Assembly (NCBI GenBank): GCA_003599195.1
Contig: QZIZ01000113.1
Coordinates: forward strand, 6,705 to 70,704
Origin: Deltaproteobacteria bacterium
GTDB lineage: Bacteria; Desulfobacterota; Desulfobaccia; Desulfobaccales; 0-14-0-80-60-11
Direction: 5' to 3'
Length of the DNA stretch: 64,000 bases
Shown here in pieces: positions 6,361 to 63,119 of this stretch. The stretch's first letter is position 1; every line of letters begins with the position of its first letter. Both the position numbers and the translations under genes were made by a program. The notes under the pieces were generated by a model. That model saw only the letters and a program-made list of their open reading frames with translations, was not told the origin of the DNA and made no database searches.

Positions 6361-7726
6361 TCAGGTCTCCGGAAAGGTGGCGTAGCCCCAGCACCGCCAG
6401 GTCATAGTTCAGGTTATTCAGGGAAGCGGCCTTTTGAGCCTCCATCAGGATTTTGCGGCCTTCCAGGAGAACGGAGAGTTCGCCTCCGGATTGATAGCGG
6501 ATGTCGCCTTGACGTTCTTTAAGGCGCGCCAGCTCCTCCTGGGCTTGGGCGGTCTTGCGGTTCACATCCGCGAGCCTCAGGTTTTCCTGGGCGTCGGACC
6601 ACTTGTCGGTCAAATCGAGGCTCTGTTCGTCCGATTCCACCTCATATTGTCTCAAAACGGTCTTTTGCCGGGAAATGTTCCTGACCCGCTTGAATCCGTC
6701 CCAAACCGGCACTTCCAAGCCCAGGGAGAAGAACAGGTCCCGGGAGCGGGTCGTGCTCAAAGGATCCGGGGTGGTGGCGCCGAAGAACACGGTGGGCAGC
6801 AGCTTGGCCTTGGCCATGGTGATATTATACTGTTGCAGCTCTTTTTTCAGTTCCGCGATCTTGAGCATATGAGAGCGCCTCTTGGCCTCCTCCAGGGAAG
6901 CGGAGGCGGGATCGAAGCCCCCCATCACCTGGCGCCGCGCGTCTTTGCAATCCAGTTCCAGGGTCTGTTCGGGTTTCATCCCGATTACGGCCTTAATTCT
7001 CTCGTGGAGCCGTTTCCTGGAGGCGGCGATGCGCTCCTGTTCGGCCTTGGCCGCGTTCAACTCCTGGGCGGCCACCTTGACCTCCAGCGAGGTGCCGGAG
7101 CCGATCTTCTCCCGGTTTTGGAAATAGTCCAGGTTCTGGCGGGCCAGATCCACGAAGTTCTGCTGCCGGGCCGCGGCGGCTATCAGAGTTTCCATTTCCA
7201 GAAACATCCGGCCCAGTTTTTGAATGCCTTCGGAAACGACCTGCATGTGAGCCAGGACCGCGATTTGGGTGAACAATTTCTTGGCCTGCAGGGTGATATA
7301 AGATTCCAGGGGATTATAACCGCTGCTGACGAAACTCAGGGTATATGGGCGGTTGGCGCTGTCATCCGGGCGGTTCACATAATATTGGGTGCGGAAAGTC
7401 ACCTTGGGGACCATGTCGAACTTGCTGTCCGTCTCATCCAGGTGTTTGATCTCCACCTCCAGGGAGCTTTTAAGGAAAAAAGGAGACCGCCTTAAGGCCA
7501 GCCGGACCGCCCGGTCATAGTCCACCGGGCCGGTGACGGCCTCGGTCTCCTGGGGGACGGCTGTTTGCGGGGCTCCTTCCCCCAGGGCCATCGGGGCGGC
7601 CCAAAGGATGGCCAAAGGAATAAAAACCAGAAAGAGGAAAAGTTTCTCGCCTAAACGGCCGCACTTCTCCCTTGGGCGCGGGGTTGTCAGGCTTCCGCCT
7701 GCCGCACCCCGGAGATTATTTTTCAT
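6317..7726 (-). CDS. Outer-membrane efflux protein (TolC family)
   Basis: 469 aa. Signal-like LFLFLVFIPLAILWAAPMALG. Shows the two-repeat coiled-coil/beta organisation typical of outer membrane factor proteins. Overlaps both neighbours (7716/7726, 6317/6360). Confidence 0.8.
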   Translation of the reverse strand: MKNNLRGAAGGSLTTPRPREKCGRLGEKLFLFLVFIPLAILWAAPMALGEGAPQTAVPQETEAVTGPVDYDRAVRLALRRSPFFLKSSLEVEIKHLDETDSKFDMVPKVTFRTQYYVNRPDDSANRPYTLSFVSSGYNPLESYITLQAKKLFTQIAVLAHMQVVSEGIQKLGRMFLEMETLIAAAARQQNFVDLARQNLDYFQNREKIGSGTSLEVKVAAQELNAAKAEQERIAASRKRLHERIKAVIGMKPEQTLELDCKDARRQVMGGFDPASASLEEAKRRSHMLKIAELKKELQQYNITMAKAKLLPTVFFGATTPDPLSTTRSRDLFFSLGLEVPVWDGFKRVRNISRQKTVLRQYEVESDEQSLDLTDKWSDAQENLRLADVNRKTAQAQEELARLKERQGDIRYQSGGELSVLLEGRKILMEAQKAASLNNLNYDLAVLGLRHLSGDLSASYVDEQSWQLQQ

Positions 7727-8423: not shown

Positions 8424-9594
8424 AGCGGATGGCGGAGACAGGTTCCATGCGGCTGGCCCGGAGGGAAGGATAGATCCCCGCGGCTACTCCCAGACCCACG
8501 GCCACCAGCAGGCCGATGAAGACGCAAAAAAGAAAAAGTCCCTGCGCGGGGTGGCTGTTGATCATGATGCTGGTGATCTCCACGACTACAAACCCCACGA
8601 GGCTGCCCGCCAGGGAGGCGGTAAAGCTGAGACAGACGGCTTCGGCCAGGAATTGGGCCATGATCGCCTGATCCTCGGCGCCCATGGCTTTTTTCAGGCC
8701 GATCTCCCGGGTGCGGGACCGGACGGCAGCCATCATCACCGTCCAGATGCCCACTCCTCCCAAGATCAGGGTGGCGGCGATGGAACTGAAAATGAAAAGC
8801 TCGACCCAAAAGGCTATGGCCTGCACCCGTTTTACCTGATCCCAGGCCACGTCCACTTTAAGGCCCTGGACATACTGCTGCGACTGGATCACCTGGGGAA
8901 TCAGGGGCACCACCTTCTCCACGTCATCCCAGGTGGAGCACCGCAAATAGATGCGGTTCGGGTAACTGATGTTAGGGATGCGGTCCTGGGCGGTGGTGAA
9001 GGGAACAAAGGCGAAATTCCGTAGATCCCCCAGGCCCACATCTTTCAGCACTCCCGACACCGTGAAAATGTCCTGCTGGATTTCCAGCTCGGCCCCGGCC
9101 ACGTCAATGGTGCCGAAAAGGGTGCGGGCCAGTTCCGGACCCAAGACGACGGCCCGCCGGCGGTGATTATTTTCCTCCAGACCGAAGACTTTTCCCTTTT
9201 GAGCCGATAATCCGCAGACTTCAAAGAAGGCCCGGTCCGCGCCGAACAGGGAAAAACCATATTGCTGCCCCTGGAGGCTGGTTTGCGCCCAGAAGGTGCT
9301 GACCGCCAAACTGGCGTCTTTTACCCCAGGCATCTGGCGGAGGGCTTCCAAAGTGGATTGCTGAAAGATTTGATGTTGATAAGGAGGCAGTTTTTCGAAG
9401 TAGACCTTGACGAGGGTGGCCCGTCCCAGGAGTTCCAGGTCGCGGTTGAAATTCTCCTTGAGGTCCCGGCCCATGGTGATAATGGTGATGAAGCCGGCGG
9501 TACCGAGGGCAATAGCCAACATTACCCCCCAGTAGCGCCGGCGATGGCGCAGGAGCTGGCGAATACTGAGCCGCAGCAGGTCACTGAGCCTCAA
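8416..9594 (-). CDS. ABC transporter permease (FtsX/MacB type)
   Basis: 392 aa. One N-terminal TM (YWGVMLAIALGTAGFITIITM), a large periplasmic domain and three C-terminal TM helices. Has an 8-nt overlap with the ATPase gene. Confidence 0.85.
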   Translation of the reverse strand: MRLSDLLRLSIRQLLRHRRRYWGVMLAIALGTAGFITIITMGRDLKENFNRDLELLGRATLVKVYFEKLPPYQHQIFQQSTLEALRQMPGVKDASLAVSTFWAQTSLQGQQYGFSLFGADRAFFEVCGLSAQKGKVFGLEENNHRRRAVVLGPELARTLFGTIDVAGAELEIQQDIFTVSGVLKDVGLGDLRNFAFVPFTTAQDRIPNISYPNRIYLRCSTWDDVEKVVPLIPQVIQSQQYVQGLKVDVAWDQVKRVQAIAFWVELFIFSSIAATLILGGVGIWTVMMAAVRSRTREIGLKKAMGAEDQAIMAQFLAEAVCLSFTASLAGSLVGFVVVEITSIMINSHPAQGLFLFCVFIGLLVAVGLGVAAGIYPSLRASRMEPVSAIRYE

Positions 9595-9644
9595 AGAAAA
9601 ATATCCCCCAAATATATTTCGGCGTTACCGGCAAATTTCTCAAG

Positions 9645-10913
9645 TTAAATGGTCAGGCTCTGGGACGAAAAACCGCCCTTGGACAGAAATTGCTCCCGTC
9701 CTGATAAATCCTCGGCCCTGATCCGGTGCTTCTTGGCCAGACGGGCCAAGACCTCCAGGACGAAGTCGATCTGCCGGTCTTCATGGGTGCTCATGTAGGC
9801 GGTACGGATCACCGCTTGCCCTTTGGGCACTGCCGGAAAGATGGCCGGCAGGGCGAACACGCCTTCCTCAAAAAGGTCCCGGGCAAAAGCGAAGGCCTTC
9901 AGGTCGTCCCCGATATGGATGGGTATAATGGGGGTTTTTGATTCTCCGGTAACGAGACCGATCTCCCGATAGCCGGCTTGTACTCTGCGGACGATCTCCC
10001 AAAGGCGGGGAACCCTGTCCGGATCTTGCTCCAGGATGTCCAGGCAGCCCAATACCGTGGCCGCATTGCTGGCGGGCAGGGCCGCGGAAAAGATCAGGGG
10101 CCGGGAATGATGGCGCAAATATTCCATGACGTCTTCATCGTCGGCGGCGATGAACCCACCCACGGAAGCCAGGGCCTTGCTGAAAGTGCCCATGATGAAA
10201 TCAACTTCGCTGTTCAAGCCGAAGTGGGCCACCGTGCCCCGTCCCTGGGGGCCCATGACTCCCAGGCCATGGGCGTCATCCAGGTAGATGAGTAAATCCG
10301 GAAATTCCTCTTTTAACTGCACCAGTTCCGGAAGCGGAGAGAGATCCCCGGACATGCTGAACACCCCTTCGGTGATCAACAATACCAGTCCGTGGGGATT
10401 TTTCTCCTTCATGGAGGCGAGTTTTTGGGCTGCGGCCTCCACATCGTTATGGGCAAAAGGAACCAGCCGGGCGCGGGAGGCCTGGCAACCTTCGAAGATG
10501 CTGGCGTGATTTTCCCGGTCGCAGAGGATCATATCCTGAGGAGTTAGCAAACAGGCGATGGATCCCAGGTTGGTGCTGAAGCCGGTGACGTGCACTACCG
10601 CTTTTTTCTTGTGGACAAAGGCCGCCAGACGCTCTTCCAGGACTTCGTGCAAGACCAGATTGCCGCACAGGAAACGGGACCCCCCCGCGCCCGTTCCCCA
10701 ATGACGCATAGCTCTTGCAGCCGCTTCCATTACCCGGGGGTCATGACTCAAGCCCAGGTAATCATTGGAACCGATCATTATGAGCCGCCGGCCGTTCACC
10801 TCCACCTCGGTCCCCCACGACTGAGATAAAGGGCGAAAATAGGGGTAGTATCCCCCTGCTTTGCCGGCTTGCACGTAGCGGGCAAAAGGTTGGCAGCGTG
10901 CTTTTAGTGACAT
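9645..10913 (-). CDS. Alpha-oxoamine synthase family PLP enzyme (serine palmitoyltransferase / BioF / KBL-like)
   Basis: 422 aa. Motifs GSNDYLGL, DDAHGLG and the PLP-lysine context GTFSKALASVGG. The N-terminal YYPYFRPL...EVEVNGRRLIMIGSNDYLGL looks Spt-like to me. Subfamily is not resolvable without a phylogeny. Confidence 0.85.
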   Translation of the reverse strand: MSLKARCQPFARYVQAGKAGGYYPYFRPLSQSWGTEVEVNGRRLIMIGSNDYLGLSHDPRVMEAAARAMRHWGTGAGGSRFLCGNLVLHEVLEERLAAFVHKKKAVVHVTGFSTNLGSIACLLTPQDMILCDRENHASIFEGCQASRARLVPFAHNDVEAAAQKLASMKEKNPHGLVLLITEGVFSMSGDLSPLPELVQLKEEFPDLLIYLDDAHGLGVMGPQGRGTVAHFGLNSEVDFIMGTFSKALASVGGFIAADDEDVMEYLRHHSRPLIFSAALPASNAATVLGCLDILEQDPDRVPRLWEIVRRVQAGYREIGLVTGESKTPIIPIHIGDDLKAFAFARDLFEEGVFALPAIFPAVPKGQAVIRTAYMSTHEDRQIDFVLEVLARLAKKHRIRAEDLSGREQFLSKGGFSSQSLTI

Positions 10914-20848: not shown

Positions 20849-21907
20849 CTAATAGTCCAGCTTTTTCTCCTGGACAAAAAACTCCACCTGCCGGAAAATC
20901 TCTTCATTGCCGCAAAAATTGTGCGCCCGGATGCGGCTCCGGAATTCCTCCAACCTGGATTCGAATTCCGGAATCATTTCGGGGTCCAGATGCGAGGCCG
21001 CGGTGATCCCCCGGCCATAACCCAGGCGTTCGATATAAAAGGCATTCAGAAACTGCTCGAACGCCCCCTTGATGGGAAAAGAAATCACCGGTTTGCCGTA
21101 ATACAGGGCCTCGGAGATCATCGAATGGCCGCCGCCGCAGACCACGTAGGCGCAGGAGGAAAGGTCGTCCAGGAAACCTTCCTCGGACTTGGGCTTATAC
21201 AGAATATTGCCTTCCCTACCCTCCTTCGGCACCCCATAGACGATCACGGGCCTGGTCAGAGCCTCCACAAAGGCCATGAATTTGCTGAAGTCGGTGATAT
21301 AGCTCTGGTACACCAGGACGTGGCCGCGGTCTTCAGGCTGCCGGGCCAGGACCGTGTCCCGGAGGAGCGGCGGGAGGATTTTCGCCCTTAAGCCCGGTTG
21401 CACCGGGGGCTGGAAAAAGGAGATCACCAGGTAGTCCGTGGCCCGGCTGAACAGGAGCCGCACCGCCAGGCTGGTGGCCAGGTAGCTGGGGTACTCCCCC
21501 CAAGGCAGGGGATGGCTGCACGCGGTGATGACGTGCTGGTGGTCGATGGAGAGGCAGGGGACGCCTAATTTCCGGCAGGCCCGGGGCAGGAAAAATTCGT
21601 AATCGCTGATCACCGCGTCCGGCTGAAAATCCTCCATCAGCTTCAGGACCCGGCGCATGATGGCCCGGCGGTTCCAGAAGACCGGAAGGTTCATCTTCAT
21701 GGTGGCGCAAGTGTCCACCCGGTGCCTGGTAAACACCGTCCCCAGGCTGGGGATGTCCACCGCCGGGAACTCCCGCTCTAAAATCGCCGGCCCCGCCTCG
21801 TGGCTGACAAAGAGAAACTCGTGCTCCGGGAACCGCCGGGCAATGCTCAAAGCCCGGATCGCATGCCCGTGCGCGGTGCCGTGGACGGCGTAGAGGATTT
21901 TGGCCAT
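20849..21907 (-). CDS. GT-B glycosyltransferase (MurG/MGT-like, MJ1255-type)
   Basis: I place the start at ATG 21907 (MAKILYAVHGTAHGHAIRAL). The C-terminal CGGGHSMISEALYYGKPVISFP is typical of GT28-like C-domains. The track's N-terminal extension to 22006 is repeat-derived. Confidence 0.8.
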   Translation of the reverse strand: MAKILYAVHGTAHGHAIRALSIARRFPEHEFLFVSHEAGPAILEREFPAVDIPSLGTVFTRHRVDTCATMKMNLPVFWNRRAIMRRVLKLMEDFQPDAVISDYEFFLPRACRKLGVPCLSIDHQHVITACSHPLPWGEYPSYLATSLAVRLLFSRATDYLVISFFQPPVQPGLRAKILPPLLRDTVLARQPEDRGHVLVYQSYITDFSKFMAFVEALTRPVIVYGVPKEGREGNILYKPKSEEGFLDDLSSCAYVVCGGGHSMISEALYYGKPVISFPIKGAFEQFLNAFYIERLGYGRGITAASHLDPEMIPEFESRLEEFRSRIRAHNFCGNEEIFRQVEFFVQEKKLDY

Positions 21908-22075
21908 ATGTTTTGTGGGGGGAGGGGCCAGGGACCCGTAGGGCGGGCGTCCCCGTCCGCCTTTTGTCCTCTGCTCCTCCCCCAAACCCCCCTCCCCAAC
22001 CCGCATGAATTAAAAATATGGTGCGCATTGCGCACCATAGATGATAAAAAATAATATTAGAAAATTGATATTATT

Positions 22076-22759
22076 TTAGTGCCATGTAGAAGGTAAGATA
22101 ATAACGGCTGCAACTAGTTTGAAGCATATTTCTCCGCGCAGGGGCCCCCCAAGACTAATTGTAAATAAAACTCTCTGTTCCTTCTTCAAGCCAATTTGTT
22201 CTGATGAATAGATTCCATGAGTAAATGGTTTGAGTTTATCTTCCCAAAGGGGATCGGTCACAACCAAATCATAATGAACTCCATTTAATAAAAACCATGC
22301 CCTGGTTTGACGATTACCTGTATAAGATGTTGTTATTTGCCATCTTACATTAATAGGAAATATAAGAGTTAAAGATGCCTTTGCAGGTGTTATTGTAAAT
22401 TCTTCTACTTTAATGCGGTCAGATGTATCCCCAAATAATTCTGGTCCAACATTAATATACTGATTAAGGAGATAGCTATATTTATCTTCGGCTGGTCTCT
22501 GGATCAAGCTCCAAGGCTTAGCTCCGACGAGCCAGTTTTCTGGTTGGTAAGGTTTTGGTACCGGAGTCTGTAAGTGAATCCTCAAAATATCTAAGAGCAT
22601 TGGATCAGTATTATTTTCAAGCACATAATGCCTTCGGCTTAACGCACCATCTTTAGTAACAGGTCTGATCCAACCCTCTCCTTTTGTTCTCAAACCTGCT
22701 ATGCATCTGCCTGACGGTTTTCTGGAATTAGCTAAACAAATTATTTCAAAACCAGGCAC
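22076..22759 (-). CDS. Hypothetical protein (227 aa), N-terminal Cys pair; no family recognised with confidence
   Basis: Sequence MPGFEIICLANSRKPSGRCIAGLRTKGEGWIRPV... AT-rich codon usage. Lies 11 nt downstream of the DUF488 gene. A nucleic-acid-binding (OB-like) fold is only a guess. Confidence 0.7.
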   Translation of the reverse strand: MPGFEIICLANSRKPSGRCIAGLRTKGEGWIRPVTKDGALSRRHYVLENNTDPMLLDILRIHLQTPVPKPYQPENWLVGAKPWSLIQRPAEDKYSYLLNQYINVGPELFGDTSDRIKVEEFTITPAKASLTLIFPINVRWQITTSYTGNRQTRAWFLLNGVHYDLVVTDPLWEDKLKPFTHGIYSSEQIGLKKEQRVLFTISLGGPLRGEICFKLVAAVIILPSTWH

Positions 22760-22770
22760 ATTCTATCTCC

Positions 22771-23208
22771 CTATAAATTAATTATCTCTATTTCACCCCA
22801 TTTATGTTTTAGATACTCCAAAACGAGCCGTCTATGGCAATATTCTGAAGTTGGTTCACTGCATAATAATACGGTAGGAATTTCAAAGATATCAGGCTTG
22901 ATCTTTTCTTCAATTTTCCTTTCTGAAAGTAATTTAATAAAACTTCTTTCGTATTCCCTCCAATCGCCTTTATTTTTCTTATATTCATTTAGTATATTCT
23001 CTGTTGGAGCAAGTAATATTTCATGAATATAATCAGCACCACATAATTCCTTAAGAAAATATTTAAGATCATCACTTTTAGCAAAACCGGATAACTGAGA
23101 AGAGTTATTCAATCGTATATCAATTAGTCTTTTAATCCTATTCTTCCGCAGTATTCCAAAAAAGTCTGCTGCTTTCTTTTTTGTAAATCCTATTGTAAAT
23201 ATTTTCAT
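22771..23208 (-). CDS. DUF488 family protein (paralogue B)
   Basis: IFTIGFTKK...RLIDIRL near the N-terminus and VLLCSEPTSEYCHRRLV near the C-terminus. These match the DUF488 hallmarks (TIGhs...DvR, and llC.E..p..CHR). Confidence 0.8.
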   Translation of the reverse strand: MKIFTIGFTKKKAADFFGILRKNRIKRLIDIRLNNSSQLSGFAKSDDLKYFLKELCGADYIHEILLAPTENILNEYKKNKGDWREYERSFIKLLSERKIEEKIKPDIFEIPTVLLCSEPTSEYCHRRLVLEYLKHKWGEIEIINL

Positions 23209-23224
23209 AATATTGTCCCTTTAT

Positions 23225-23758
23225 TTAAAATAGCGATAATTGTCGCTCGCTATCGCTTTCTATTTCAGGTTTCAACTGATTCTGTGTTTCTAATTCTCCA
23301 TTACCTCGTATGTGATTAACGATAACGCCATTTGCCGCAAGAGTGCGGCCTACTAATAGATAACGATGACATCTATCTGGATTCTCTTCGCTGCACATTA
23401 GTGCAATACGGAATTTTTGAAGACCTTCTTCAATTCTGGCAAGCGCTTCCCTAAAAAATTGTGATTCTGCAAGAGTAGAATAGATTATGTTGCCATTGAT
23501 ATCATAAAATTCTTTTCCTTCTGGCCTTCCCCCCAATTCCCTCCCCAAATATAAGTATTTTATATTATAAGCTTTAACTGCTTTTTTAAGATTATTTATA
23601 TCAAATTGTGGAGCATATTTTGAGTAAGGGTGAGAGCGAATATCAACTAAAACATCAATATGATATTTATTCAATAGCTGAATAAATATAGATAGTTGGT
23701 GGTTTGAATGACCAATTGTAAAAATGACTTTTGAGAAATTGTCTTTAAAATTTGACAT
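23225..23758 (-). CDS. DUF488 family protein (paralogue A)
   Basis: Motifs VIFTIGHSNHQL...VLVDIRSHPYSKYAPQF, YLYLGRELGG and ALMCSEENPDRCHRYLLV. Confidence 0.8.
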   Translation of the reverse strand: MSNFKDNFSKVIFTIGHSNHQLSIFIQLLNKYHIDVLVDIRSHPYSKYAPQFDINNLKKAVKAYNIKYLYLGRELGGRPEGKEFYDINGNIIYSTLAESQFFREALARIEEGLQKFRIALMCSEENPDRCHRYLLVGRTLAANGVIVNHIRGNGELETQNQLKPEIESDSERQLSLF

Positions 23759-23818
23759 ACAGTCTATGCCCTCAGCTCAATTGCTCAGGTTTAATATTTA
23801 TTTAAAAATATCCCGAAA

Positions 23819-23941
23819 TCAATATATCTTTTCCAAAGTGACGAAGAATCTTTCAGTCGCGTGGTAGGCATTTCCAAGATTAGTAACCCTCAAGCTGGCC
23901 AGCATACCCACGGTCTTGCCTCCCAAAATCCGAGGTGGCAT
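23819..23941 (-). pseudogene. Low-GC remnant of a ribD 3' end (last ~40 codons)
   Basis: The minus-strand translation is MPPRILGGKTVGMLASLRVTNLGNAYHATERFFVTLEKIY*. It aligns with the intact RibD C-terminus APKILGGKTAPGMLAGAGAKHLGNALQAKDLQVNKLGPDLLVTGYL*. A stop codon lies immediately upstream. Confidence 0.75.
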
Positions 23942-23974
23942 TATCTAAACGTTTATTCTAATAGTACAACATCC

Positions 23975-25102
<1,128 letters not shown>

Positions 25103-31860: not shown

Positions 31861-31917
31861 AGTGGTCAGTGGTCAGTGGCCAGAAAGTGATCAGTAATCA
31901 GTGATCAGTGATCAGTG
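31861..31917. repeat. Heptamer arrays (GGTCAGT x2, GGCCAG, then GTGATCA/GTAATCA x4); left arm of a gene-spanning inverted repeat
   Basis: Sequence agtggtcagtggtcagtggccagaaagtgatcagtaatcagtgatcagtgatcagtg. The inverted partner is at 32655-32714. Confidence 0.95.
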
Positions 31918-32571
31918 AAAATCCTGTGGTGGTAAATTTAGTTTCACATCCGGAAAAATTTTCGACATTCGACCCGAAAGTACAACCATATAACATTGGC
32001 ATTCCATGGCAATAGCGCTGCACAGTTCAGGATTATTCAATATCTTCCCGCTTGCATATCCAAGTTCGCCGTCTGGCAGAGCAACAAGATTTTGATAACA
32101 ACTTATTGGATCTCCATGCACCATGGAATTATGGGAGTTGACAATATTCTGGGCTTCATTGTCTGGCACTCCACCTGCCATACTTGCCATCATGGTAGCA
32201 AGCTTTGGCCTTTTATGATAATGCCAACCTTTCTCCCAAAGGGAGACGAATTCAGGGTGGTTATCGAGATATGAAATCGTCGCTGCTCTCTCAATCAGTG
32301 GACGCATTAGAATGAGGGCTGAAAACAAATACCCCTGCCTAATCAACTCCCGAATGCTGAGGGCAATACTTATACCCTGTGGAATGATTTGGCATGCTGC
32401 CCGCTGTAATGGAGAAAGAGAACTGGATTTCTCACGTGTCCATGACGCAACCTTTTGGTTTGACTCCAGAGACCAACAAATAATTCGGTCAAACCATAGG
32501 ACTGATTCAAGCCCAAGATATGGCTCGTTGCCAGGGGTGAAGACCGGGGTTGTTTCCTTACGCCGTATCAT
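31912..32571 (-). CDS. Hypothetical protein (219 aa), helical, lower GC than neighbours
   Basis: The only long ORF in the interval. A hand-counted line gives about 45% GC. No family confidently recognised. The segment IRELIRQGYLFSALILMRPLIERA reminds me of small helical DUF families. Confidence 0.65.
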   Translation of the reverse strand: MIRRKETTPVFTPGNEPYLGLESVLWFDRIICWSLESNQKVASWTREKSSSLSPLQRAACQIIPQGISIALSIRELIRQGYLFSALILMRPLIERAATISYLDNHPEFVSLWEKGWHYHKRPKLATMMASMAGGVPDNEAQNIVNSHNSMVHGDPISCYQNLVALPDGELGYASGKILNNPELCSAIAMECQCYMVVLSGRMSKIFPDVKLNLPPQDFH

Positions 32572-52970: not shown

Positions 52971-53780
52971 TCATTTTGGTAGATCATAGTTGGCAATGAG
53001 CAGCTCCTTCGCCTTTTTTGCCGGCCTGCTGCCTCCGGGGCCGCCTGTGCCCGTCGTGTATGTGGTGGCTACCTCTCGCATTCTCTGATCTTCGAAGACT
53101 TCACGAACCTCCGGCAGATCGTTGAGACTCATTAAAAACCGGCCCTTGAGGGACTTGAGAAGCGCCGCCAGCCTTTGAAAGTCATCCCGGCTGAAAATGC
53201 CCTTGCCATAGAAGTCTTCGCACCCCCAATATGGCGGGTCGAGATAAAAGAAGCTTTCCGGGCCGTCGTAACGGCGGAGGCACTCCTCATAGGGGAGATG
53301 CTCCACCACCACGTTTTCCAGGCGCAGATGCACCTCTAATAGGGTCTGCTCGGCCCTGGCCCCGAGAAAGGGCCGGGAACTGCCGTCCAGACGCCCGGCA
53401 AAATGGCAGTTCACATCCGGCAGTTTGCCGCCATAGCCGGTGCGCAGCAGATAATAAAACCTCACGGCCCGCTGAATATCCGTGAGGTGGCATGGCTGAA
53501 TCTCCTTAAAGCGAGCGAACTCAATCCGGCTACGAAGACTCCAGCGCATGCACTTAAGAAATTCCTCCGGATGGTTCTGCACGATCCGGAAGAGATTAAT
53601 CAACTCTCCGTTTAGATCATTCAGCACCTCGCAGGGGCTTGGCGCTTTCGCCAAAAGGATGGTGGCCGACCCTGCGAAAGGCTCGCAGTAAAGCCGGTGG
53701 TCGGGCAGCAGGTTGAGGATGGTTTTGGCCAGCAGGCGTTTCCCTCCCAGATAAGGAACCAATCGGGACATGGCTTGCAC
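52971..53780 (-). CDS. DNA adenine methyltransferase (Dam / D12 class)
   Basis: Contains YLGGKRLLA, EPFAGSATI and the catalytic YLDPPYWG. SD AGGAGG lies upstream. No restriction partner is adjacent. Confidence 0.9.
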   Translation of the reverse strand: MQAMSRLVPYLGGKRLLAKTILNLLPDHRLYCEPFAGSATILLAKAPSPCEVLNDLNGELINLFRIVQNHPEEFLKCMRWSLRSRIEFARFKEIQPCHLTDIQRAVRFYYLLRTGYGGKLPDVNCHFAGRLDGSSRPFLGARAEQTLLEVHLRLENVVVEHLPYEECLRRYDGPESFFYLDPPYWGCEDFYGKGIFSRDDFQRLAALLKSLKGRFLMSLNDLPEVREVFEDQRMREVATTYTTGTGGPGGSRPAKKAKELLIANYDLPK

Positions 53781-53889
53781 CTCCTGTTATTATTTATACA
53801 AGAGTACCAACACAGAAGGCTTTTATCAACGCTACTGGCGCTGTTTATAATTGTTTATCACTGTAGGACCTATTTCAGTGCTGGCCGCC

Positions 53890-54945
53890 TCATTCCTCCC
53901 AGCCCACGGCTCGCACCGACTGATTACTGGTGTTTTCGTTGTTGAAGTAGATGCGGTTGCCGTCCAGGAGGTGGCAGGCAAAGGGGATGGCCCCCCGGAC
54001 GCTCTGGAAGGTGCCGCTGGGCGCGGCCCCGTGGAGCACCACGGCGGCATTCGTGCCGTCGTAGGAGATGCCCAGTTTGACGTCCGTGCCGCCGGTGGCC
54101 ACGGCCTCTCCCAGGAGCCGCCGGGCCGTGGGGGGCACTTTCAGCCCCAGGTCCTTGGCGGCATAGCCGTTGATAGCTCCGGAAGCGATCTCGATGAAGG
54201 TGTTCCAGGCCACCTGGCGACCGTTCTTGATGAACCGCACCAGGTTGCTGGAATCATCATTGAGGATCATGCCCAGGTAGCGGAAATTGGTGTTGGGCAG
54301 CACCATCAGCCAGTCGCCCTGGGCCAGGGTCAGGGCCGTGCCGGAGTAAGTCAGGGTGCCGGCCGTGCCGTTATCGTTGTTGTTGGCGGTGATGGTCCTG
54401 ATCTGCCCCTTGGACGCCCCGGAGAGCACCAGGAGCTTGTAATTCGCCAGCTCGTTGGTGCTGAAGCCGTAGCCGATGTCCCCGGTGTTGCCGCAGTTGC
54501 GCAGGGTGATGACCTGGGCCACCTGGGAGGAGAAGCGCATCGCCGGCAGGGCCTTGAGGGTGAAGGTGGTGTCCGCGGCCGCGGCCAGGGCGTAGACCGC
54601 GTACCACTGGCTGGCCTTTTCGTTCCCCCAGAGGTTGGAAGGGGTATCGAAGTCCATCACCACGTCCGCGCTCATCTCCCGGTACTTGCCGTCCGAGAGG
54701 CCGCCATCCACGAAAAGCCCCCGATGAAACGGCGAGGGAAAGCCGCAGAGCATGAGGCGGGCCTTGCAGTCGGAGGTGGCCGGGATCTTCACCTGGGTGG
54801 CGTCCACCCACACCAGGTCCGGGCAGTAGACCAGATCGGCCAGTTCCACCACTGCGCCTTCCACCTTCTCGAAGTCGCTCTTTAGTATCACCTGGCGGCC
54901 GGTGCCGCTGCCCCATTTGACTTGGGGCACGTGGATTAAGCTCAT
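53890..54945 (-). CDS. Phage structural protein (tail/receptor-binding region), function unknown
   Basis: 351 aa, Gly/Thr/Asn-rich and beta-type in composition. Sits at the distal end of the tail module. Confidence 0.65.
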   Translation of the reverse strand: MSLIHVPQVKWGSGTGRQVILKSDFEKVEGAVVELADLVYCPDLVWVDATQVKIPATSDCKARLMLCGFPSPFHRGLFVDGGLSDGKYREMSADVVMDFDTPSNLWGNEKASQWYAVYALAAAADTTFTLKALPAMRFSSQVAQVITLRNCGNTGDIGYGFSTNELANYKLLVLSGASKGQIRTITANNNDNGTAGTLTYSGTALTLAQGDWLMVLPNTNFRYLGMILNDDSSNLVRFIKNGRQVAWNTFIEIASGAINGYAAKDLGLKVPPTARRLLGEAVATGGTDVKLGISYDGTNAAVVLHGAAPSGTFQSVRGAIPFACHLLDGNRIYFNNENTSNQSVRAVGWEE

Positions 54946-54993
54946 AACAAAATCCCCCTCTTTCCCCCTTTAGAAAAGGGGGAGGTTAAAGGT

Positions 54994-56178
54994 TTAATAG
55001 ACGTAAGCCCGGTAGCACCAGTTGGGGTCGCCCTCCCCCGCCAGGTCGATGGCGTAGGAGTCGTAGGCGGTGCCCGTATCATCCACGGCCCAGGCCGCGG
55101 GATAGGCAATGGGGCGCCAGAGGCGCAGTTTCACCCGGCGCTGGTCCAGGCTGAGGTTTTTGGCAAAGAGGGTGAACTCCTCCTGGTCGAAACCGTGAAA
55201 ATCGGAGGAGACGGCCACCGGGTCGCCCAACTCCAAGCGGGCCCCCTCCAGCCAGGTTTCCAGGTCGGCGATCTCCCGAGGCGGGGAGAGCCGGGCCAGC
55301 TTCCGTTCGGCCAGGGTTGCGGCCAGTTGCGGGTCTTCGGTGATCACCGGGGAGCCGTATTTCAGGTCGATGTCGCCGGGTAGCTCCCCCAACTCGTCAA
55401 TGAGGGCCTGGTCCTTGGCCTCGGCGTATTTGCTGTTGTCCCGGTCGTAGTCGCCGTAGCGCACCCGCACCAGGTTCTTCAGGTCCCGCAGCTCGTAGGA
55501 GGTGGTGATGGATTTCACCGAGGAGGCCGCCAGGATCGCCAGGTTCTCCAGGAGCACGAACTTGAGCATCTTGTCGAACCAGACCCAGGAGCCGCTCTGC
55601 TTGGCGTAATCCAGGGCGGCGTAGAGCATCAGGGTCAGGCCCTCCATGCTCCCCAACTGGCGCAGCATCAGGTAGTGGGGGACGTATTCCCAGACGTCCG
55701 CGTCCTCGATGATGGTGAAGGGAATGGTGTCGGCGTTCAACAGGTTGGGCTTGGAGTCTCCGGAAAGAGCGAAAAACCGGCTCATCATTGCCCCGAACTG
55801 AATATCGGCGTTCGCGGCATCCGGAAAGGAAAAGACCTGGCCGCTGCGGCCGGTGGCCGCCAGGCCGAAGGCATGGGCTACCAGGGCGTTGAGCCAGGCG
55901 TAATGGTAATCGCTTTTGTAGACAAATCCGCCGAACTCATAGCTCATGCGATTGATCCGCAAATCGTCAAGAATTTTGCGGGCCAGGGTCAGGGCGGTGG
56001 CGTTGCCGTTGCGTAGATAGATATAAATCAGGCCGATGGCCGCGGCGGCCATCGCGCCGGGATCATAACCCCCATATTTGAATCCGTAATCGGAAAACCA
56101 CACGGGCAAAGCAACTTGCGGCGCGCCGCTATAAACAACGCCGGTCCCATACCTTGCGCCTGTGCCGAATTTAGCCAT
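54994..56178 (-). CDS. Phage protein, function unknown (394 aa)
   Basis: A long ORF co-directional with the tail genes. No motif recognised. Confidence 0.65.
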   Translation of the reverse strand: MAKFGTGARYGTGVVYSGAPQVALPVWFSDYGFKYGGYDPGAMAAAAIGLIYIYLRNGNATALTLARKILDDLRINRMSYEFGGFVYKSDYHYAWLNALVAHAFGLAATGRSGQVFSFPDAANADIQFGAMMSRFFALSGDSKPNLLNADTIPFTIIEDADVWEYVPHYLMLRQLGSMEGLTLMLYAALDYAKQSGSWVWFDKMLKFVLLENLAILAASSVKSITTSYELRDLKNLVRVRYGDYDRDNSKYAEAKDQALIDELGELPGDIDLKYGSPVITEDPQLAATLAERKLARLSPPREIADLETWLEGARLELGDPVAVSSDFHGFDQEEFTLFAKNLSLDQRRVKLRLWRPIAYPAAWAVDDTGTAYDSYAIDLAGEGDPNWCYRAYVY

Positions 56179-56207
56179 TATTACGCTATAAACAACGCCG
56201 GCCCATA

Positions 56208-57569
56208 CTAAGGGGCGGCTTCATAAAAGAATTGCCCGGCAATGGTCTTGTTGCCGGAGGCCGTCCAGGCCGTCTCGGAGGCATCCTTATAAAAATTGAC
56301 CGTGCTCGCTCCCTGGGCCAGGGAGAGCAGCCCCGCGGTCTGCCAGTTGTAATTGTCCGCGGCCCGGATCAGGGCGTGGATGTAGGTGGGGGCGTTGCTG
56401 GCAAAGGGCAGGGTGAAGCTGGCCGCGGTGCTGTTGCTGACCCCGTGGATGTAGAAGGCGACATAGACCAGGGAGCCGACCTTTTTGTAATAGATGTCCT
56501 TGTACCAAAAGGAACTCCAGCCGGTGACTGTCGAAGTGGCTCCATAGCTGTTCCAGGCGGAGGCCGAAGCAATGAACGAGTCGATGGCCGCATGGGAGTT
56601 GGTGCCGATGTCGGTCAAGGAAGTGTGGCTCTTGGTGGTAATATCCGCAATATTTGAGGTGGTTTTGTTTATTTCCCCCCAAGTGGGCACTGCCCAGGCA
56701 CGATCGCCCCGGAGATATTTGGTGGCGTCCGCCCCGGCCCCGGCTAAATAAGAAGTGGCCACCTTTGTCGTGGCGTCCAGCGGGCAATAACCGTTAGCGC
56801 CGCCTTTAGAGGTCAGAACCTCGTGCCCCGCATGGGGGGCGGAAGCCACCAAGTGCGTATCGATGGCCGCATGGGAGTTAGTGCCGATATCGGTCAAAGA
56901 CGTGTGGCTCTTGGTGGTGAGGTCACCCAGGTTGGATATGGTTTTATCGATCTGCGCCCAGGTGCCGATGACGCCGGTGTGGTAACCGGAGCCGTGAGCC
57001 GTGGGCGTCCGGGCGTCGGTGTTCCGGGGGTCGGAGTTGGTGACGTATTTGTTGGCCGCCGAAGGCGCGCCGTTGGTGCCGGCCAGGGCCGCCTTCTGGT
57101 CGGCGGTGGGGTCGTTGGCATTGTTGTGGGTGGGATAATTGAGGCTCAACTTGCTTTCCGCAATGCCCGCGGCGGCGTGCACATCGCCATTTTCCACCAG
57201 CTTGGCGGCCGCATCCTCTACGCCTCCGGTGACGTGGCGGAAGCCGGTGCCGGTGGGCGCGGTCACCGGCAGGGGTGACCAGGTCCCGTCCCCCCGGAAG
57301 AATGTGCTGAGGTCATTGGGGGCTTTGGGGACGAAGCCGTGCCTGGCCGTGGAGACGTCGCCGGTGGTGTTGTCGGAGAGGGACAGGCCGCTTTCCGGCA
57401 CGGCGGCGCCGGCGCCCTCTGTGTGGTTGTGCGAATCCCCCCAGGTGACATGGGCCCCGGGCAGCAGGTCGTGCTGGGCTGGCAGATCACCCGGAAAGGT
57501 GATCTGGGTGGCCCAGCCGTGCGCGGCCAGCAATCCTAAAAGCAGTAGTAAACCGGCGTAGCGAATCAT
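56208..57569 (-). CDS. Phage tail fibre protein
   Basis: Start at ATG 57569 (MIRYAGLLLLLGLLAAHG), preceded by SD GGAGGG and overlapping the upstream stop as ATGA. Fibre-type motifs include STARHGFVPKAPNDLSTFFRGDGTWS and NSDPRNTDARTPTAHG. Has an internal repeat TKSHTSLTDIGTNSHAAID x2. Confidence 0.8.
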   Translation of the reverse strand: MIRYAGLLLLLGLLAAHGWATQITFPGDLPAQHDLLPGAHVTWGDSHNHTEGAGAAVPESGLSLSDNTTGDVSTARHGFVPKAPNDLSTFFRGDGTWSPLPVTAPTGTGFRHVTGGVEDAAAKLVENGDVHAAAGIAESKLSLNYPTHNNANDPTADQKAALAGTNGAPSAANKYVTNSDPRNTDARTPTAHGSGYHTGVIGTWAQIDKTISNLGDLTTKSHTSLTDIGTNSHAAIDTHLVASAPHAGHEVLTSKGGANGYCPLDATTKVATSYLAGAGADATKYLRGDRAWAVPTWGEINKTTSNIADITTKSHTSLTDIGTNSHAAIDSFIASASAWNSYGATSTVTGWSSFWYKDIYYKKVGSLVYVAFYIHGVSNSTAASFTLPFASNAPTYIHALIRAADNYNWQTAGLLSLAQGASTVNFYKDASETAWTASGNKTIAGQFFYEAAP

Positions 57570-57838
57570 GATCCCTCCACCCGGCCGGAGACCTGCGCCA
57601 GTTCCTCCGGAACGGTATTTTGCCCCTGCCCGGCCAGCATCCGGTTCAATTCCTCCTGGCACCGCTGCCGCCACTGGGTCAGGAGCTGCACCTGAAAATC
57701 AATGCGGGTGATCCGTTCCTGGAGCAGCTCGGAATGCAGTTTGCCGTTTACTCCCTGGAGCTGGGCCAGTTCCTGCTTTAGTCTGTTGATCTCCTGATCT
57801 TGGAGTCTTTGCGTCTCCGCGCCTTTGCGTGATCTCAT
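57566..57838 (-). CDS. Small coiled-coil protein (phage); start uncertain
   Basis: 90 aa, Gln/Leu-rich heptad-like sequence. The first ~12 codons are encoded by a CGCAAAG-family repeat (tctttgcgtctccgcgcctttgcgtga). Confidence 0.45.
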   Translation of the reverse strand: MRSRKGAETQRLQDQEINRLKQELAQLQGVNGKLHSELLQERITRIDFQVQLLTQWRQRCQEELNRMLAGQGQNTVPEELAQVSGRVEGS

Positions 57839-57849
57839 CTTTTACTCCC

Positions 57850-60909: not shown

Positions 60910-60916
60910 TTAGATA

Positions 60917-61001
60917 CCCGTTTTCCGTTTTCGGTTTTCTGTTTTCGGTAAAAAATAAAAAATCATCTTGCGTCTTGGCGCCTTGGCGTCTTTGCGTGAG
61001 G
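60917..61001. repeat. Host-type repeats inside the phage module: TTTTCSG heptamers plus CGCAAAG-type array
   Basis: Sequences cccgttttccgttttcggttttctgttttcgg and cttgcgtcttggcgccttggcgtctttgcgtgagg. Confidence 0.9.
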
Positions 61002-62681: not shown

Positions 62682-62688
62682 TAAACTC

Positions 62689-62755
62689 GTAGGGCGGGCG
62701 TCCCCGCCCGCCCTTTAATCCTTGCGTCTTGGCGAGTTTGCGTCTTTGCGTGAGG
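62689..62755. repeat. GC hairpin gtagggcgggcgtccccgcccgcc plus CGCAAAG-type array
   Basis: The hairpin recurs at 21938-21961 and 40548-40565. The array is ccttgcgtcttggcgagtttgcgtctttgcgtgagg. Confidence 0.9.
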
Positions 62756-62756
62756 T

Positions 62757-63119
62757 TTAAACTTCCTCCAACTCGATCGTCCCCGACCACCAGCTGCCGG
62801 GCACGGCCACAAAATTAAAATTGTTGGTCCAGTCGAAAGTCCCGACTTTCTCTCCGGAGAGGTCGTAAAAATCCAGGTCCACCTGGGCGTCCTTGATCTC
62901 CTTGAACTTTTCCTTTTGGGCCTCGGAGATATAATTGAAACGCAGACTCCAGCGCTGCTTATAATCCCGGCGATAGCTCCGGAGCGTGCCGTCGATGGCC
63001 CGGGCCCGGTCGCCGAAATCCTGGTGCTGGTGCTCAAAGCCCCAGGAATAATTCACCGGGAAGGTGTAGCTCTGCTCCGTGCCCCCCCGGGGGGTCCAGA
63101 CGAACCGGCCGTTAGGCAT
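62757..63119 (-). CDS. Small phage tail protein (120 aa), position analogous to a minor/distal tail protein
   Basis: Immediately follows the tape-measure-like gene with no gap (63119/63120). Confidence 0.6.
   Translation of the reverse strand: MPNGRFVWTPRGGTEQSYTFPVNYSWGFEHQHQDFGDRARAIDGTLRSYRRDYKQRWSLRFNYISEAQKEKFKEIKDAQVDLDFYDLSGEKVGTFDWTNNFNFVAVPGSWWSGTIELEEV

Follow-up and report, generated by a model that had tools for sequence, protein, structure and literature searches.

A Horizontally Acquired DuOB/DUF488 Operon Downstream of ribD, Matching a Candidate Anti-Phage System

The Locus and Its Genes

The window analyzed here (the whole stretch of 64,000 nt from contig QZIZ01000113.1 of a Deltaproteobacteria bacterium) contains three tightly packed, co-directional minus-strand open reading frames encoding proteins of 177, 145, and 227 aa and referred to as genes B, C, and A; the two gaps between them measure 16 and 11 nt (Table 1). 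An earlier note, made from the letters of this DNA alone, had given the same lengths, orientation, and gaps, and the ORF coordinates confirm all of them. The triad spans only 1.7 kb and lies directly downstream of ribD on the same strand, at a spacing of 217 nt; its neighbors in the window are housekeeping genes and form no defense island. Neither a terminator nor a promoter was predicted in the spacer between ribD and gene B (minus strand, 23759-23975), and the operon is probably transcribed here by read-through from nrdR-ribD. A terminator-like hairpin starts 37 nt past the DuOB stop codon of gene A. Comparison of the island and the spacer with known RNA families gave sub-threshold chance matches only.

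Table 1. Features of the insert and its flanks (positions in the window).
Feature	Coordinates	Strand	Evidence
Gene B, 177-aa DUF488 protein (PDC-M45B type)	23225..23758	-	PF04343 3.2e-22 (79.8 bits); PDC-M45B (PDLC04657) 8.2e-55
Gene C, 145-aa DUF488-N3a protein (PDC-M45C type)	22771..23208	-	PF04343 4.5e-18 (66.5 bits); PF22751 2.8e-8 (34.5 bits, cut-off 27); PDC-M45C (PDLC04658) 6.5e-65, full length
Gene A, 227-aa DuOB protein, GTG start (PDC-M45A type)	22076..22759	-	PF22557 9.8e-44 (150.3 bits, cut-off 27; profile positions 2-210 of 210); PDC-M45A (PDLC04653) 1.3e-37 (residues 5-220 on profile 6-223 of 230)
Intrinsic-terminator-like hairpin, end of operon	22007..22039	-	10-bp stem (6 GC), 3-nt loop, tail TTTTTAATTC
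Decayed, frameshifted extra ribD 3' end (pseudo-fragment)	23802..23945	-	Between resident ribD and gene B; GC 0.39
Whole insert, 2,067 bp	21909..23975	.	blastn homology to L081/L082 breaks at 23976 and 21908
Resident ribD (flank)	23975..25102	-	dCMP_cyt_deam_1 and RibD_C Pfam domains on homologues
Glycosyltransferase (flank), 352 aa from Met conserved in relatives	20849..21907	-	Pfam Glyco_trans_1_3 1.7e-69

The abrupt drop in GC content described in the earlier note is real, with values of 0.27-0.41 over positions 22050-23850 against 0.62-0.69 in the flanks, whereas its figure of about 68% for ribD was too high (0.65 as measured). The genes of the triad have a GC content of 0.30-0.39 and a GC3 of 0.22-0.29 in a host genome of about 60% GC; nearly all other long ORFs of the window have a GC3 of about 0.6-0.9, apart from a few ORFs that are short or doubtful (0.42-0.56). 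Of the 19 segments of 400 nt in which the GC content is 0.40 or less, 17 fall in 22001-23701 and the remaining two at about 45.1-45.3 kb, a clustering far beyond chance.

An Insertion Downstream of ribD

The closest relatives of this genome (L081 and L082, in which RibD is 88% and GlyA 95% identical to the window) share the synteny of the region, but in both ribD runs straight into the glycosyltransferase gene, just 5 nt away, and the triad is absent. Positions 21909-23975 are therefore an insertion, by all appearances a horizontally acquired and self-contained three-gene operon placed directly downstream of ribD. The earlier bounds of 22030-23960 had the location right, the insert being slightly wider when compared with these relatives. 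At the same spot L083 and L086 hold other cargo. The empty site in the relatives, this alternative cargo, and copies of the module on plasmids and prophage-like elements were counted for a mobile, accessory status; the empty site and these copies also bear out the description of the island as mobile and foreign. One genome context is thus available with and without the insert, which makes the locus a clean natural experiment.

The triad follows ribD in three genomes, namely that of the window, L084, and L085, with a gap of at most 15 nt in the latter two. In the window a pseudo-fragment of a second ribD lies in the insert; its translation reads PPRILGGKTVGMLA..NLGNA and continues in another frame with FGKDILISGYF and a stop, comparable to the C-termini of RibD in the window (ILGGKTAPGMLAGAGAKHLGNA...) and in L084 (IGKDILISGYL and a stop), and 35 nt of it are 88.6% identical to the end of ribD in L084. 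This fragment suggests that the insert was captured by recombination, from a donor whose triad was linked to ribD. A recent exchange between the three copies next to ribD was considered and rejected, as the identity at four-fold sites between the window and L084/L085 (0.29-0.58) is not above that of host genes. That low GC content is intrinsic to the module was likewise ruled out: in 69 other loci the GC content of the triad tracks that of the host (r = 0.9), with a mean deficit of 4 points. The extreme AT-richness in the clade of the window may be kept by selection, for example so that a dangerous activity is silenced or kept at a low level of expression.

No integrase or recombinase gene was found in the insert, no meaningful repeats (direct repeats included) flank it, and no tRNA gene was found anywhere in the window. 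The insert is thus without the hallmarks of an integrative mobile element, i.e., its own recombinase, flanking repeats, and a tRNA target.

The DuOB Protein

The 227-aa product of gene A, which the earlier note could not place, is a full-length member of the Pfam family DuOB (dual OB domain; E 9.8e-44). HMM searches, structure prediction, and Foldseek agree on a dual-OB nucleic-acid-binding domain, and not on a well-characterized metabolic family, the outcome that the note had named as contrary to its reading. In the AF2 model (pLDDT 96.5, pTM 0.93) the protein consists mostly of beta-strand with a few short helices and forms two beta-barrels. The best Foldseek matches of this model are the tandem-OB DNA binders HIN-200, RPA, CST, and LEF-3 (probability up to 0.99), at TM-scores of only 0.27-0.42 and sequence identities of 7-12%. 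A phmmer search of DuOB against the PDB at E <= 1 returned no match, and its Pfam search gave no match to a HIN domain. The model thus shows a predicted tandem OB domain of the DNA-binding kind.

The N-terminal segment with a Cys pair pointed out in the earlier note is present (CLANSRKPSGRC, residues 8-19). Residues S12, C19, W30, R32, E74, S129, and S202 are invariant and C8, K14, Q72, N75, D169, and K214 nearly so. DuOB, a well-folded module and predicted DNA binder, is unusual in how rigid its set of invariant polar residues is. In the three loci of Desulfobacteraceae type that were run against Pfam, DuOB is the C-terminal part of a complete RecQ (DEAD, Helicase_C, RecQ_Zn, RQC, HRDC, and HTH_40 domains), and about ten loci have the corresponding architecture of about 900-980 aa. 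In archaea DuOB is paired with RQC or with Myb/GcrA-like HTH domains. The fusions with RecQ, RQC, and HTH domains and the resemblance of the model to HIN-200 dsDNA sensors and to the ssDNA binders RPA, CST, and LEF-3 were counted for a DNA substrate.

Two Types of DUF488 Protein

Both upstream genes, which the earlier note had taken for diverged DUF488 paralogues, match PF04343 in an HMM search. Protein C also belongs to DUF488-N3a; protein B does not, as it reaches only 18.4 bits on PF22751 (cut-off 27). The motifs TIGHS/TIGFT, D.R, and C.E/CHR are present as described, except that five residues and not four separate E from C. Protein B keeps the family-conserved TIGHS, D39.R41S, C122.E124, and C130-H-R132, and protein C keeps D30, R32, C116, E118, and C124-H-R; across alignments of 41-71 homologues, the D.R and C.E/CHR residues of both do not vary. 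The idea that protein B ends in an SSB-like acidic docking tail ("LF") was considered and dismissed, since in most homologues LF lies inside the protein, and the tails are specific to individual clades.

AF2 modeled protein C, at a pLDDT of 89, as a three-layer alpha/beta fold of Rossmann-like appearance, in which strand 112-116 ends in the invariant C116-S-E118, followed by a loop and by C124-H-R-R at the start of a helix (from H125). The Foldseek matches of this model to PTP-fold Cys phosphatases and to diphthine- or tetrapyrrole-methylase-like domains are weak (E 0.02-0.3, TM-scores 0.37-0.50) and include AtPFA-DSP1, SsoPTP, and a baculovirus RNA 5'-phosphatase; for DUF488 even the best structural match (E 0.02) is below significance. 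Searching PDB sequences with proteins A and B, and for C with a profile, gave no match. The fold of protein C, the invariant Cys motifs, and the replacement of B by a DUF4326 protein in a variant module were counted for the proposed type of enzyme. The best 120 homologues of protein C are 60-78% identical across phyla and nearly all exactly 145 aa long, an unusual degree of conservation for an arms-race protein, which was counted against defense.

Occasionally the two DUF488 proteins form one chain, as in a single 313-aa protein of one Bathyarchaeia locus; in many loci their ORFs overlap, by 4 or 61 nt. The fusion and the overlaps were counted for a physical coupling of B and C.

Conservation, Distribution, and Mobile Carriage

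The species-level genome collection contains 130 relatives of DuOB. Among the 80 species-level loci kept, which span many phyla of bacteria and archaea, the complete triad is present in 67, and contig ends truncate a further 7. The gene order is B-C-A or A-B-C, with B always directly before C in the 67 complete loci. The three genes are a widely conserved unit; a triad not conserved in other genomes, which the earlier note had held would speak against its reading, is thus not what was found.

The majority of copies lie on chromosomes, well away from recognizable mobile-element genes, and most neighborhoods are housekeeping rather than defense islands. No rib gene is among the annotated recurrent neighbor clusters of the 80 other loci. 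No copy of the module occurs in 50,697 isolated phage genomes, it is rare in IMG/VR, and DuOB has no PHROG family. The mostly housekeeping neighborhoods, the absence from isolated phages, and the rarity in IMG/VR were counted against defense.

The module does travel on plasmids and prophage-like elements. A variant in which an mSLOG-DUF4326 protein takes the place of B (DuOB, C-type DUF488, and mSLOG-DUF4326) is the sole cargo of a 4.2-kb Klebsiella plasmid and is further found on Acinetobacter plasmids, beside P2-like tail genes, and on one chromosome. The B-containing triad adjoins a serine recombinase/ImmA pair and occurs on a linear replicon of Rhodovastum. A comparison of DUF4326 with B and C by hhalign (3 sequences) stayed below significance.

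Relation to the Candidate Defense System PDC-M45

The three adjacent genes match all three PDC-M45 models of PADLOC-DB v2.0.0 (1e-37 to 6.5e-65). On these matches and on their adjacency in one locus, an adjacency also seen in 67 of the 80 other loci, the locus is assigned to PDC-M45, a candidate anti-phage system. The accessory three-gene unit proposed in the earlier note is supported, although it is less novel than supposed, being already catalogued in Pfam (DuOB, DUF488-N3a) and PADLOC. PDCs are defined by embedding in known defense loci. A literature search found no published validation of PDC-M45 as a defense system; it is not among the validated PDCs in the literature covered, and most PDCs are likewise unvalidated candidates.

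Defense-model matches (E <= 1e-10) occur in a minority of the 241 nearest neighbors (within 2 genes), as a raw count, and include BrxL, HmaB, HEC-01A/B, PtuA, AriA, mad3, NsnB, and PDC-S05. Such neighbors and the definition of PDCs were counted for a link to defense. As to defense islands, which the earlier note had proposed to look for, defense genes adjoin a minority of loci, and the neighbors in the window are housekeeping genes. The triad contains no recognizable toxic effector (nuclease, NADase), a point counted against defense. The nucleic-acid-targeting, repair, or anti-phage role proposed from the letters alone fits the RecQ-DuOB fusions, the PDC-M45 match, and the defense genes at a minority of loci.

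Possible Functions

The proposal that DuOB targets DNA and that the DUF488 pair B-C carries out its chemistry there, giving this acquired operon a role in conflicts between the cell and mobile DNA, seems to us evenly poised between right and wrong. DuOB would recognize a DNA substrate, either ssDNA or DNA ends and unwound intermediates, and would recruit a heterodimer of B and C. The heterodimer may catalyze a metal-independent transfer or removal of phosphate or sugar phosphate at DNA termini or on a DNA adduct derived from a nucleotide. The role would most likely lie in conflicts between cells and mobile DNA, and most probably consist in restricting phage or plasmid DNA that invades the cell, by altering the ends or intermediates of that DNA.

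The same proteins could instead form an accessory module of DNA repair or damage reversal and no immune effector, with DuOB on ssDNA or a lesion at stalled forks, RecQ acting in cis or in trans, and the DUF488 pair cleaning blocked ends (3'-phosphate, 5'-adenylate) or stripping toxin-placed adducts such as ADP-ribose. The RecQ, RQC, and HRDC fusions speak for repair, as do the lack of a toxin component, the mostly housekeeping neighborhoods, the very strongly conserved sequence of protein C, which suits an enzyme with an invariant substrate, and one DUF488 gene that lies amid RadC, YpsA, and UvrD/Dna2-like genes on archaeal plasmids; so does the alternative partner mSLOG-DUF4326, since DUF4326 has been proposed to process ribose phosphates in ADP-ribose derivatives (PMC9503650). 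We nevertheless consider repair rather unlikely, given the patchy, laterally transferred distribution with closest relatives that do without the module, its positions as sole cargo of tiny plasmids and as prophage cargo, its flagging in PADLOC by embedding in defense loci, and no repair phenotype on record. Mobile elements might also use the module for counter-defense or establishment, i.e., to protect or repair their own incoming DNA by masking ends from RecBCD-like nucleases or by reversing host-imposed DNA modification. Its surroundings on small plasmids and the linear Rhodovastum replicon, with many small hypothetical genes and an adjoining giant SNF2-related gene, resemble a leading-region or anti-restriction context, and DUF4326 is common in phages (phrog_464). 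This is made quite improbable by the mostly chromosomal copies far from recognizable mobile-element genes, by DuOB having neither a PHROG family nor a match in isolated phages, and by the position of the triad in a housekeeping operon in the window.

A compact, autonomous, AT-rich unit that moves laterally and resides on very small plasmids also calls to mind a toxin-antitoxin-like addiction module stabilizing its carrier DNA, but the three conserved components include none like known toxins or antitoxins, there are no matches to such systems in PADLOC or Pfam, and toxin-antitoxin pairs do not typically show high sequence conservation or RecQ fusions, so that we give this explanation very little weight. 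Scarcely tenable, and already disfavored, is a metabolic role as an adjunct to riboflavin synthesis, such as supplying the sugar-phosphate phosphatase step of the pathway. In the three genomes where it directly follows ribD the triad apparently belongs to the same transcription unit, and DUF488 is said to have been placed by Burroughs and Aravind (2023) in a phosphatase-type superfamily; yet the link to ribD is confined to the clade of the window, the recurrent neighbor clusters elsewhere are free of rib genes, the closest relatives do without the triad, its composition is foreign, and riboflavin metabolism would have no use for a predicted DNA-binding dual-OB partner or for RecQ fusions.

Within the preferred reading of DuOB-directed DUF488 chemistry on DNA, it is possible, though somewhat doubtful, that this chemistry is new to prokaryotic immunity or repair: a tandem OB domain, possibly itself catalytic in view of its invariant Cys/Ser/Glu/Asp/Lys set, may present DNA ends or ssDNA to a Cys-loop heterodimer that moves phosphate or sugar-phosphate groups. 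If true, this would be the first function for the very large and widespread DUF488 family, YeaO of E. coli included. Establishing how the triad acts would validate or dismiss a PADLOC candidate already counted as "defense" in genome surveys, and would put to the test whether DNA ends are targets of rhodanese-phosphatase-type enzymes in conflicts, as predicted. The triad should be easy to clone and test because it is short (1.7 kb), self-contained, and present in many phyla, with the DUF4326 variant on plasmids of clinical Klebsiella and Acinetobacter.

Comparison With Known Systems

The triad shows no structural difference from PDC-M45, in which M45A is DuOB and M45B and M45C are the two DUF488 types, all matched here. 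It differs in not being embedded in a defense locus in the window; PDC-M45 is itself a candidate by guilt of embedding. The Pfam names PF22557 DuOB and PF22751 DUF488-N3a reportedly originate from Burroughs and Aravind (2023); a literature search on DuOB gave no relevant paper. [quoted passage not shown] Their DuOB/DUF488-N3 systems share the Pfam families with the triad, and the kind of prediction is the one made here.

HIN domains are innate-immune DNA sensors. DuOB resembles HIN-200 (AIM2, IFI16, p202, MNDA), RPA, CST, and LEF-3 in having tandem OB barrels in one unit of about 200 aa; this resemblance is one of fold type, without matches at the sequence level, and the invariant residue set of DuOB is not known from HIN or RPA. 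As modeled, DUF488 may have in common with PTP-fold Cys phosphatases, the C-terminal domain of RapZ, and DUF4326 a small alpha/beta fold of the Rossmann-like kind, where a strand ends in a conserved Cys and leads over a loop into an Arg-bearing helix, and DUF4326 can take the place of protein B in the module. The motif of DUF488 is C-x-E-x5-C-H-R, in contrast to the canonical C-x5-R of PTP-fold Cys phosphatases, and the structural matches have E values of 0.02 or above. E. coli YeaO has the same Pfam DUF488 domain as B and C, but its gene stands alone, accompanied by neither DuOB nor another DUF488 protein. There is no literature on the function of YeaO, as stated in a study in which deletion of yeaO skewed CRISPR spacer acquisition (bioRxiv 10.1101/2024.05.24.595836), the sole experimental hint, and one that concerns DNA transactions.

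Family Identity and Conservation of the Triad

The three genes between ribD and a glycosyltransferase gene in the window (A, B, and C; together the triad) all belong to described families. In Pfam, B matches DUF488 (3.2e-22), C matches both DUF488 (4.5e-18) and the subfamily DUF488-N3a (34.5 bits, cut-off 27), and A matches the "dual OB-containing domain" DuOB over its full length (9.8e-44); no NCBIfam model matches A, B, or C. The profile search proposed in an earlier note on this DNA thus identifies all three genes. The 227-aa protein, which that note could not place, is a DuOB protein; a well-characterised metabolic family, which the note had set against its own reading, was not what emerged. 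The DUF488 motifs that it listed are all present, but the spacing from E to CHR is five residues instead of four. Each protein also matches its own PADLOC model (A, PDC-M45A, 1.3e-37; B, PDC-M45B, 8.2e-55; C, PDC-M45C, 6.5e-65), so that by its profile matches the locus can be taken as an instance of the PADLOC candidate system PDC-M45. Such candidates were nominated because they are recurrently embedded inside known defence loci, and most remain candidates; a literature search found no paper mentioning PDC-M45.

DuOB has 317 word-sharing homologues. In a library of 1.84 billion, 4,317 clusters at 50% identity match it (3,247 at E ≤1e-10). A scan of relatives with one genome per species found 130, from which 80 loci were kept, spanning Armatimonadota, Cyanobacteria, Chloroflexota, Planctomycetota, Desulfobacterota, Proteobacteria, Nitrospinota, Actinomycetota, and three archaeal groups. 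When their ORFs were searched with B, C, and A, 67 of the 80 held a complete triad, seven were cut by a contig end, one was a variant, and five were partial; the triad is therefore conserved as a unit in other genomes. The order is B-C-A or A-B-C, C always immediately follows B, and the two frequently overlap by 4 or 61 nt. A Bathyarchaeia locus encodes a single B-C protein of 313 aa, which argues that B and C would function as a pair. The top 120 homologues of C are 60–78% identical and nearly all exactly 145 aa long. The exact 61-nt overlap between the 3' end of B and the start of C occurs in locus L001 (9552-9612) and 19 further B-C-A loci; the overlapping B tail bears the conserved motif LF..EE..W[KR]S[IT][QR]SVLP[KR], and the window's B ends just past LF, without this tail.

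Table. Coordinates of the triad, its insert, and related loci.
Feature	Locus	Position	Strand	Remarks
B	window	23758..23225	minus	ORF, 177 aa
C	window	23208..22771	minus	ORF, 145 aa
A	window	22759..22076	minus	ORF, 227 aa, GTG start
Terminator-like hairpin	window	22039..22007	minus	10-bp GC-rich stem then T-run, 37 nt downstream of A
Insert	window	21909–23975		2,067 bp, homology breakpoints against L081/L082
RecQ-DuOB fusion gene	L036	2248-4953		followed by B and C
RecQ-DuOB fusion gene	L039	787-3726		followed by B and C
RecQ-DuOB fusion gene	L043	5975-8869		followed by B and C
DuOB-DapB ORF	L012	3214-4836
DuOB-DapB ORF	L013	10001-11620
DuOB-DapB ORF	L014	2614-4188
DuOB-DapB ORF	L024	9902-11647
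Variant module	L092	2370-4028		clinical K. pneumoniae plasmid CP052514.1
Variant module	L091	5992-7680		A. pittii pApiAE13b
Variant module	L087	9989-11712
Variant module	L067	374-2127
Schlafen-AlbA_2 + HATPase_c_4 gene	L056, L058, L066, L070, L072, L074, L077, L079	about 8500-9984		different classes

Insertion of the Triad at ribD

The triad is an acquired three-gene unit. On contigs reached via RibD homologues, the two closest relatives (L081 and L082; RibD 88% and GlyA 95% identical) share the window's gene order (ETF genes, adh_short, ACP, rpiB, glyA, nrdR, ribD, glycosyltransferase, double GT4, radical-SAM), and their glycosyltransferase starts 5 nt after ribD (L081 9128-9134). Homology of the window's DNA to these relatives ends at 23976 and 21908, which delimits the insert. 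At the same spot another relative (L083) has an orphan 208-aa ORF without Pfam match (9142-9768) and a further one (L086) a GNAT acetyltransferase (7258-7716); in this lineage a small hotspot for cargo lies at the junction of ribD and glycosyltransferase. The search for integration machinery turned up neither an integrase in the insert nor a flanking repeat nor, anywhere in the window, a tRNA.

The island of packed co-directional genes described in the earlier note is confirmed, with spacings of 16 nt (B-C) and 11 nt (C-A) and a GC content of 0.27–0.41 at 22050–23850 against 0.62–0.69 in both flanks; with the empty site in L081/L082 and copies on plasmids, this bears out its view of a foreign, mobile module. 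GC3 is 0.22–0.29 in the triad genes and about 0.6–0.9 in nearly all remaining long ORFs of the 64-kb window (0.42–0.56 in a few short or doubtful ones), and 17 of the 19 windows of 400 nt with GC ≤0.40 fall in the island. Since no predicted promoter or terminator separates B from ribD, read-through from nrdR-ribD into the triad is plausible. The island's terminator is set apart from the start of the glycosyltransferase by a G-tract-rich, GC-rich spacer of about 100 nt (21909-22016), which has no counterpart in L081/L082 and partial similarity in L083, and which lengthens the mechanical glycosyltransferase ORF call by 33 codons (385 aa vs. 352 aa).

The 217-nt spacer upstream of B contains the decayed, frameshifted 3' end of a second ribD (about 23945–23802), whose final codons (FGKDILISGYF*) are closer to the RibD C-terminus of L084 (IGKDILISGYL*) than to that of the window. 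In L084 and L085, which are more distantly related, a B-C-A triad lies 15 nt downstream of the resident ribD. On the simplest reading of these sequences, the triad and an attached piece of ribD reached the window's lineage from a related donor in which the two were already linked.

In these three related genomes of about 60% GC, the triad (window, 22076-23758; L084, 9362-11040; L085, 6479-8159) has a GC3 of 0.23–0.32 beside a ribD of 0.78–0.80. The triad copies are old and near saturation at four-fold sites: compared with L084/L085, the window's triad is 0.29–0.58 identical there (chance about 0.30), and flanking housekeeping genes are 0.59–0.69 identical. Across 69 other loci the GC of the triad correlates with that of the host (r = 0.9). 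Taken together, these observations leave two histories for this clade, repeated insertion of AT-rich copies beside ribD or a long residence during which AT-richness was kept. A second, smaller low-GC patch in the window, flanked by genes for ETF and acyl-CoA dehydrogenase, is a 219-aa ORF (31912-32571, minus; GC 0.45, GC3 0.42) that matches DUF5677 below threshold; in relatives a PEMT-like gene occupies roughly this place.

Predicted Structures and Domain Fusions

Structure prediction and structural search, as suggested for the 227-aa protein, gave a highly confident model (pLDDT 96.5, pTM 0.93) with two beta-barrels, a predicted tandem-OB fold. Its best PDB and viral structure matches are tandem-OB DNA binders, namely the HIN-200 domains of p202, MNDA, AIM2, and IFI16 as well as RPA70, CST, and baculovirus LEF-3; at TM-scores of 0.27–0.42 the likeness is one of fold type only. 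Its invariant (S12, C19, G22, W30, R32, E74, S129, S202) and near-invariant residues (C8, K14, Q72, N75, D169, K214) exceed the needs of a generic binder.

In the three Desulfobacteraceae-type loci examined with Pfam, a complete RecQ helicase (DEAD, Helicase_C, RecQ_Zn_bind, RQC, HRDC, HTH_40) ends in a DuOB domain, an architecture of ~900–980 aa shared by about ten loci, and archaeal DuOB is joined to RQC or Myb/GcrA-like HTH domains (in L041, to RQC and a GcrA-like HTH). DuOB is thereby linked, at the level of gene fusions, with DNA helicase and DNA-binding domains, which points to DNA as its probable substrate. In Chthonomonas-type genomes the DuOB ORF runs into a full DapB_N + DapB_C (dihydrodipicolinate reductase); this may be a genuine fusion or reflect a stop codon lost at an insertion just upstream of dapB.

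The model of C (pLDDT 89) shows a three-layer alpha/beta fold, with strand 112–116 terminating in the invariant C116-S-E118 and the following helix starting with C124-H-R-R. PDB sequence searches found no solved relative of the DUF488 proteins, and the best structural matches of C are weak (E 0.02–0.3), to tetrapyrrole-methylase-like domains and PTP-fold cysteine phosphatases. The assignment to the rhodanese-phosphatase superfamily, reportedly made by Burroughs and Aravind in 2023, would agree with this mixture.

Variant Module, Mobile Carriers, and Neighbourhoods

DuOB homologues occur on 11 plasmids. On the mobilizable Klebsiella pneumoniae plasmid pB16KP0202-4 (4,167 bp) the sole cargo is a variant module, in which DuOB is followed by a C-type DUF488 and a 197-aa mSLOG + DUF4326 protein; an Acinetobacter pittii plasmid copy is annotated DUF488 + DUF4326, the L067 copy is chromosomal, and that on IMG/VR contig L087 lies directly downstream of P2-like baseplate and tail-fibre genes. 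Because the variant keeps the C-type DUF488, C is the constant partner of DuOB, and the second enzyme is either a B-type DUF488 or DUF4326, which has been proposed to process ribose phosphates in ADP-ribose derivatives (PMC9503650). Another IMG/VR locus adjoins an ImmA-like peptidase and a large serine recombinase, and on a linear Rhodovastum replicon A-B-C lies beside a giant SNF2-related gene. Neither DuOB nor C was found in isolated phage genomes, and PHROGs has no DuOB family and only weak DUF488-like families. Within the window, a Dam-like D12-class DNA adenine methylase gene (52971-53780, minus) is followed by large ORFs that lack Pfam matches over about 10 kb, one of them encoding a 1,019-aa protein with a weak Laminin_G_3/ConA-like match; this stretch (52971-64000) is a possible prophage tail or host-specificity region.

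When 583 flanking ORFs were clustered, few recurrent neighbours emerged, all lineage-specific housekeeping genes except a Schlafen-AlbA_2 + HATPase_c_4 protein, the sole cross-lineage neighbour and a possible fourth component with a regulatory role, encoded directly upstream of and co-directionally with A-B-C in eight loci. The triad's neighbours in the window are housekeeping genes. In L058 the Schlafen-AlbA_2 + HATPase_c_4 gene accompanies DuOB alone. By raw count, a minority of the 241 genes within two positions of a triad match defence models at E ≤1e-10 (including BrxL, HmaB, HEC-01A/B, HEC-03B, PtuA, AriA, mad3, NsnB, PDC-S01, PDC-S03, and PDC-S05).

Candidate Role and Relation to Known Systems

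DuOB would serve as the binder of ssDNA, DNA ends, or unwound intermediates; a B-C heterodimer recruited by it could, through a Cys/Glu/His/Arg loop, carry out phosphate or sugar-phosphate reactions at DNA termini or nucleotide-derived adducts. B, which is coupled to C, can be replaced by DUF4326. Defence against invading DNA has about an even chance of being the role; what counts most strongly against a classical immune effector is that no toxic domain is present and that C is very highly conserved. For DUF488 proteins as a whole, experiment offers a single hint, the altered CRISPR spacer acquisition of an E. coli mutant in yeaO, a gene described in the same paper as without literature (bioRxiv 10.1101/2024.05.24.595836).

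Accessory repair or damage reversal is a distinctly less probable role, about half as credible as defence; on archaeal plasmids a DUF488 gene lies among RadC, YpsA, and UvrD/Dna2-like genes. Counter-defence on behalf of a mobile element is unlikely, an addiction module more so, and a metabolic function linked to riboflavin is the most improbable. With the unit conserved and the 227-aa protein identified as DuOB, the earlier note's cautious reading of an accessory nucleic-acid-targeting, repair, or anti-phage candidate is supported. The triad offers a compact, readily testable way into the function of DUF488 and DuOB. Since the module is already catalogued computationally (DuOB and DUF488-N3a in Pfam, PDC-M45 in PADLOC), the locus adds a further member to a catalogued, functionally uncharacterised type rather than a new category.
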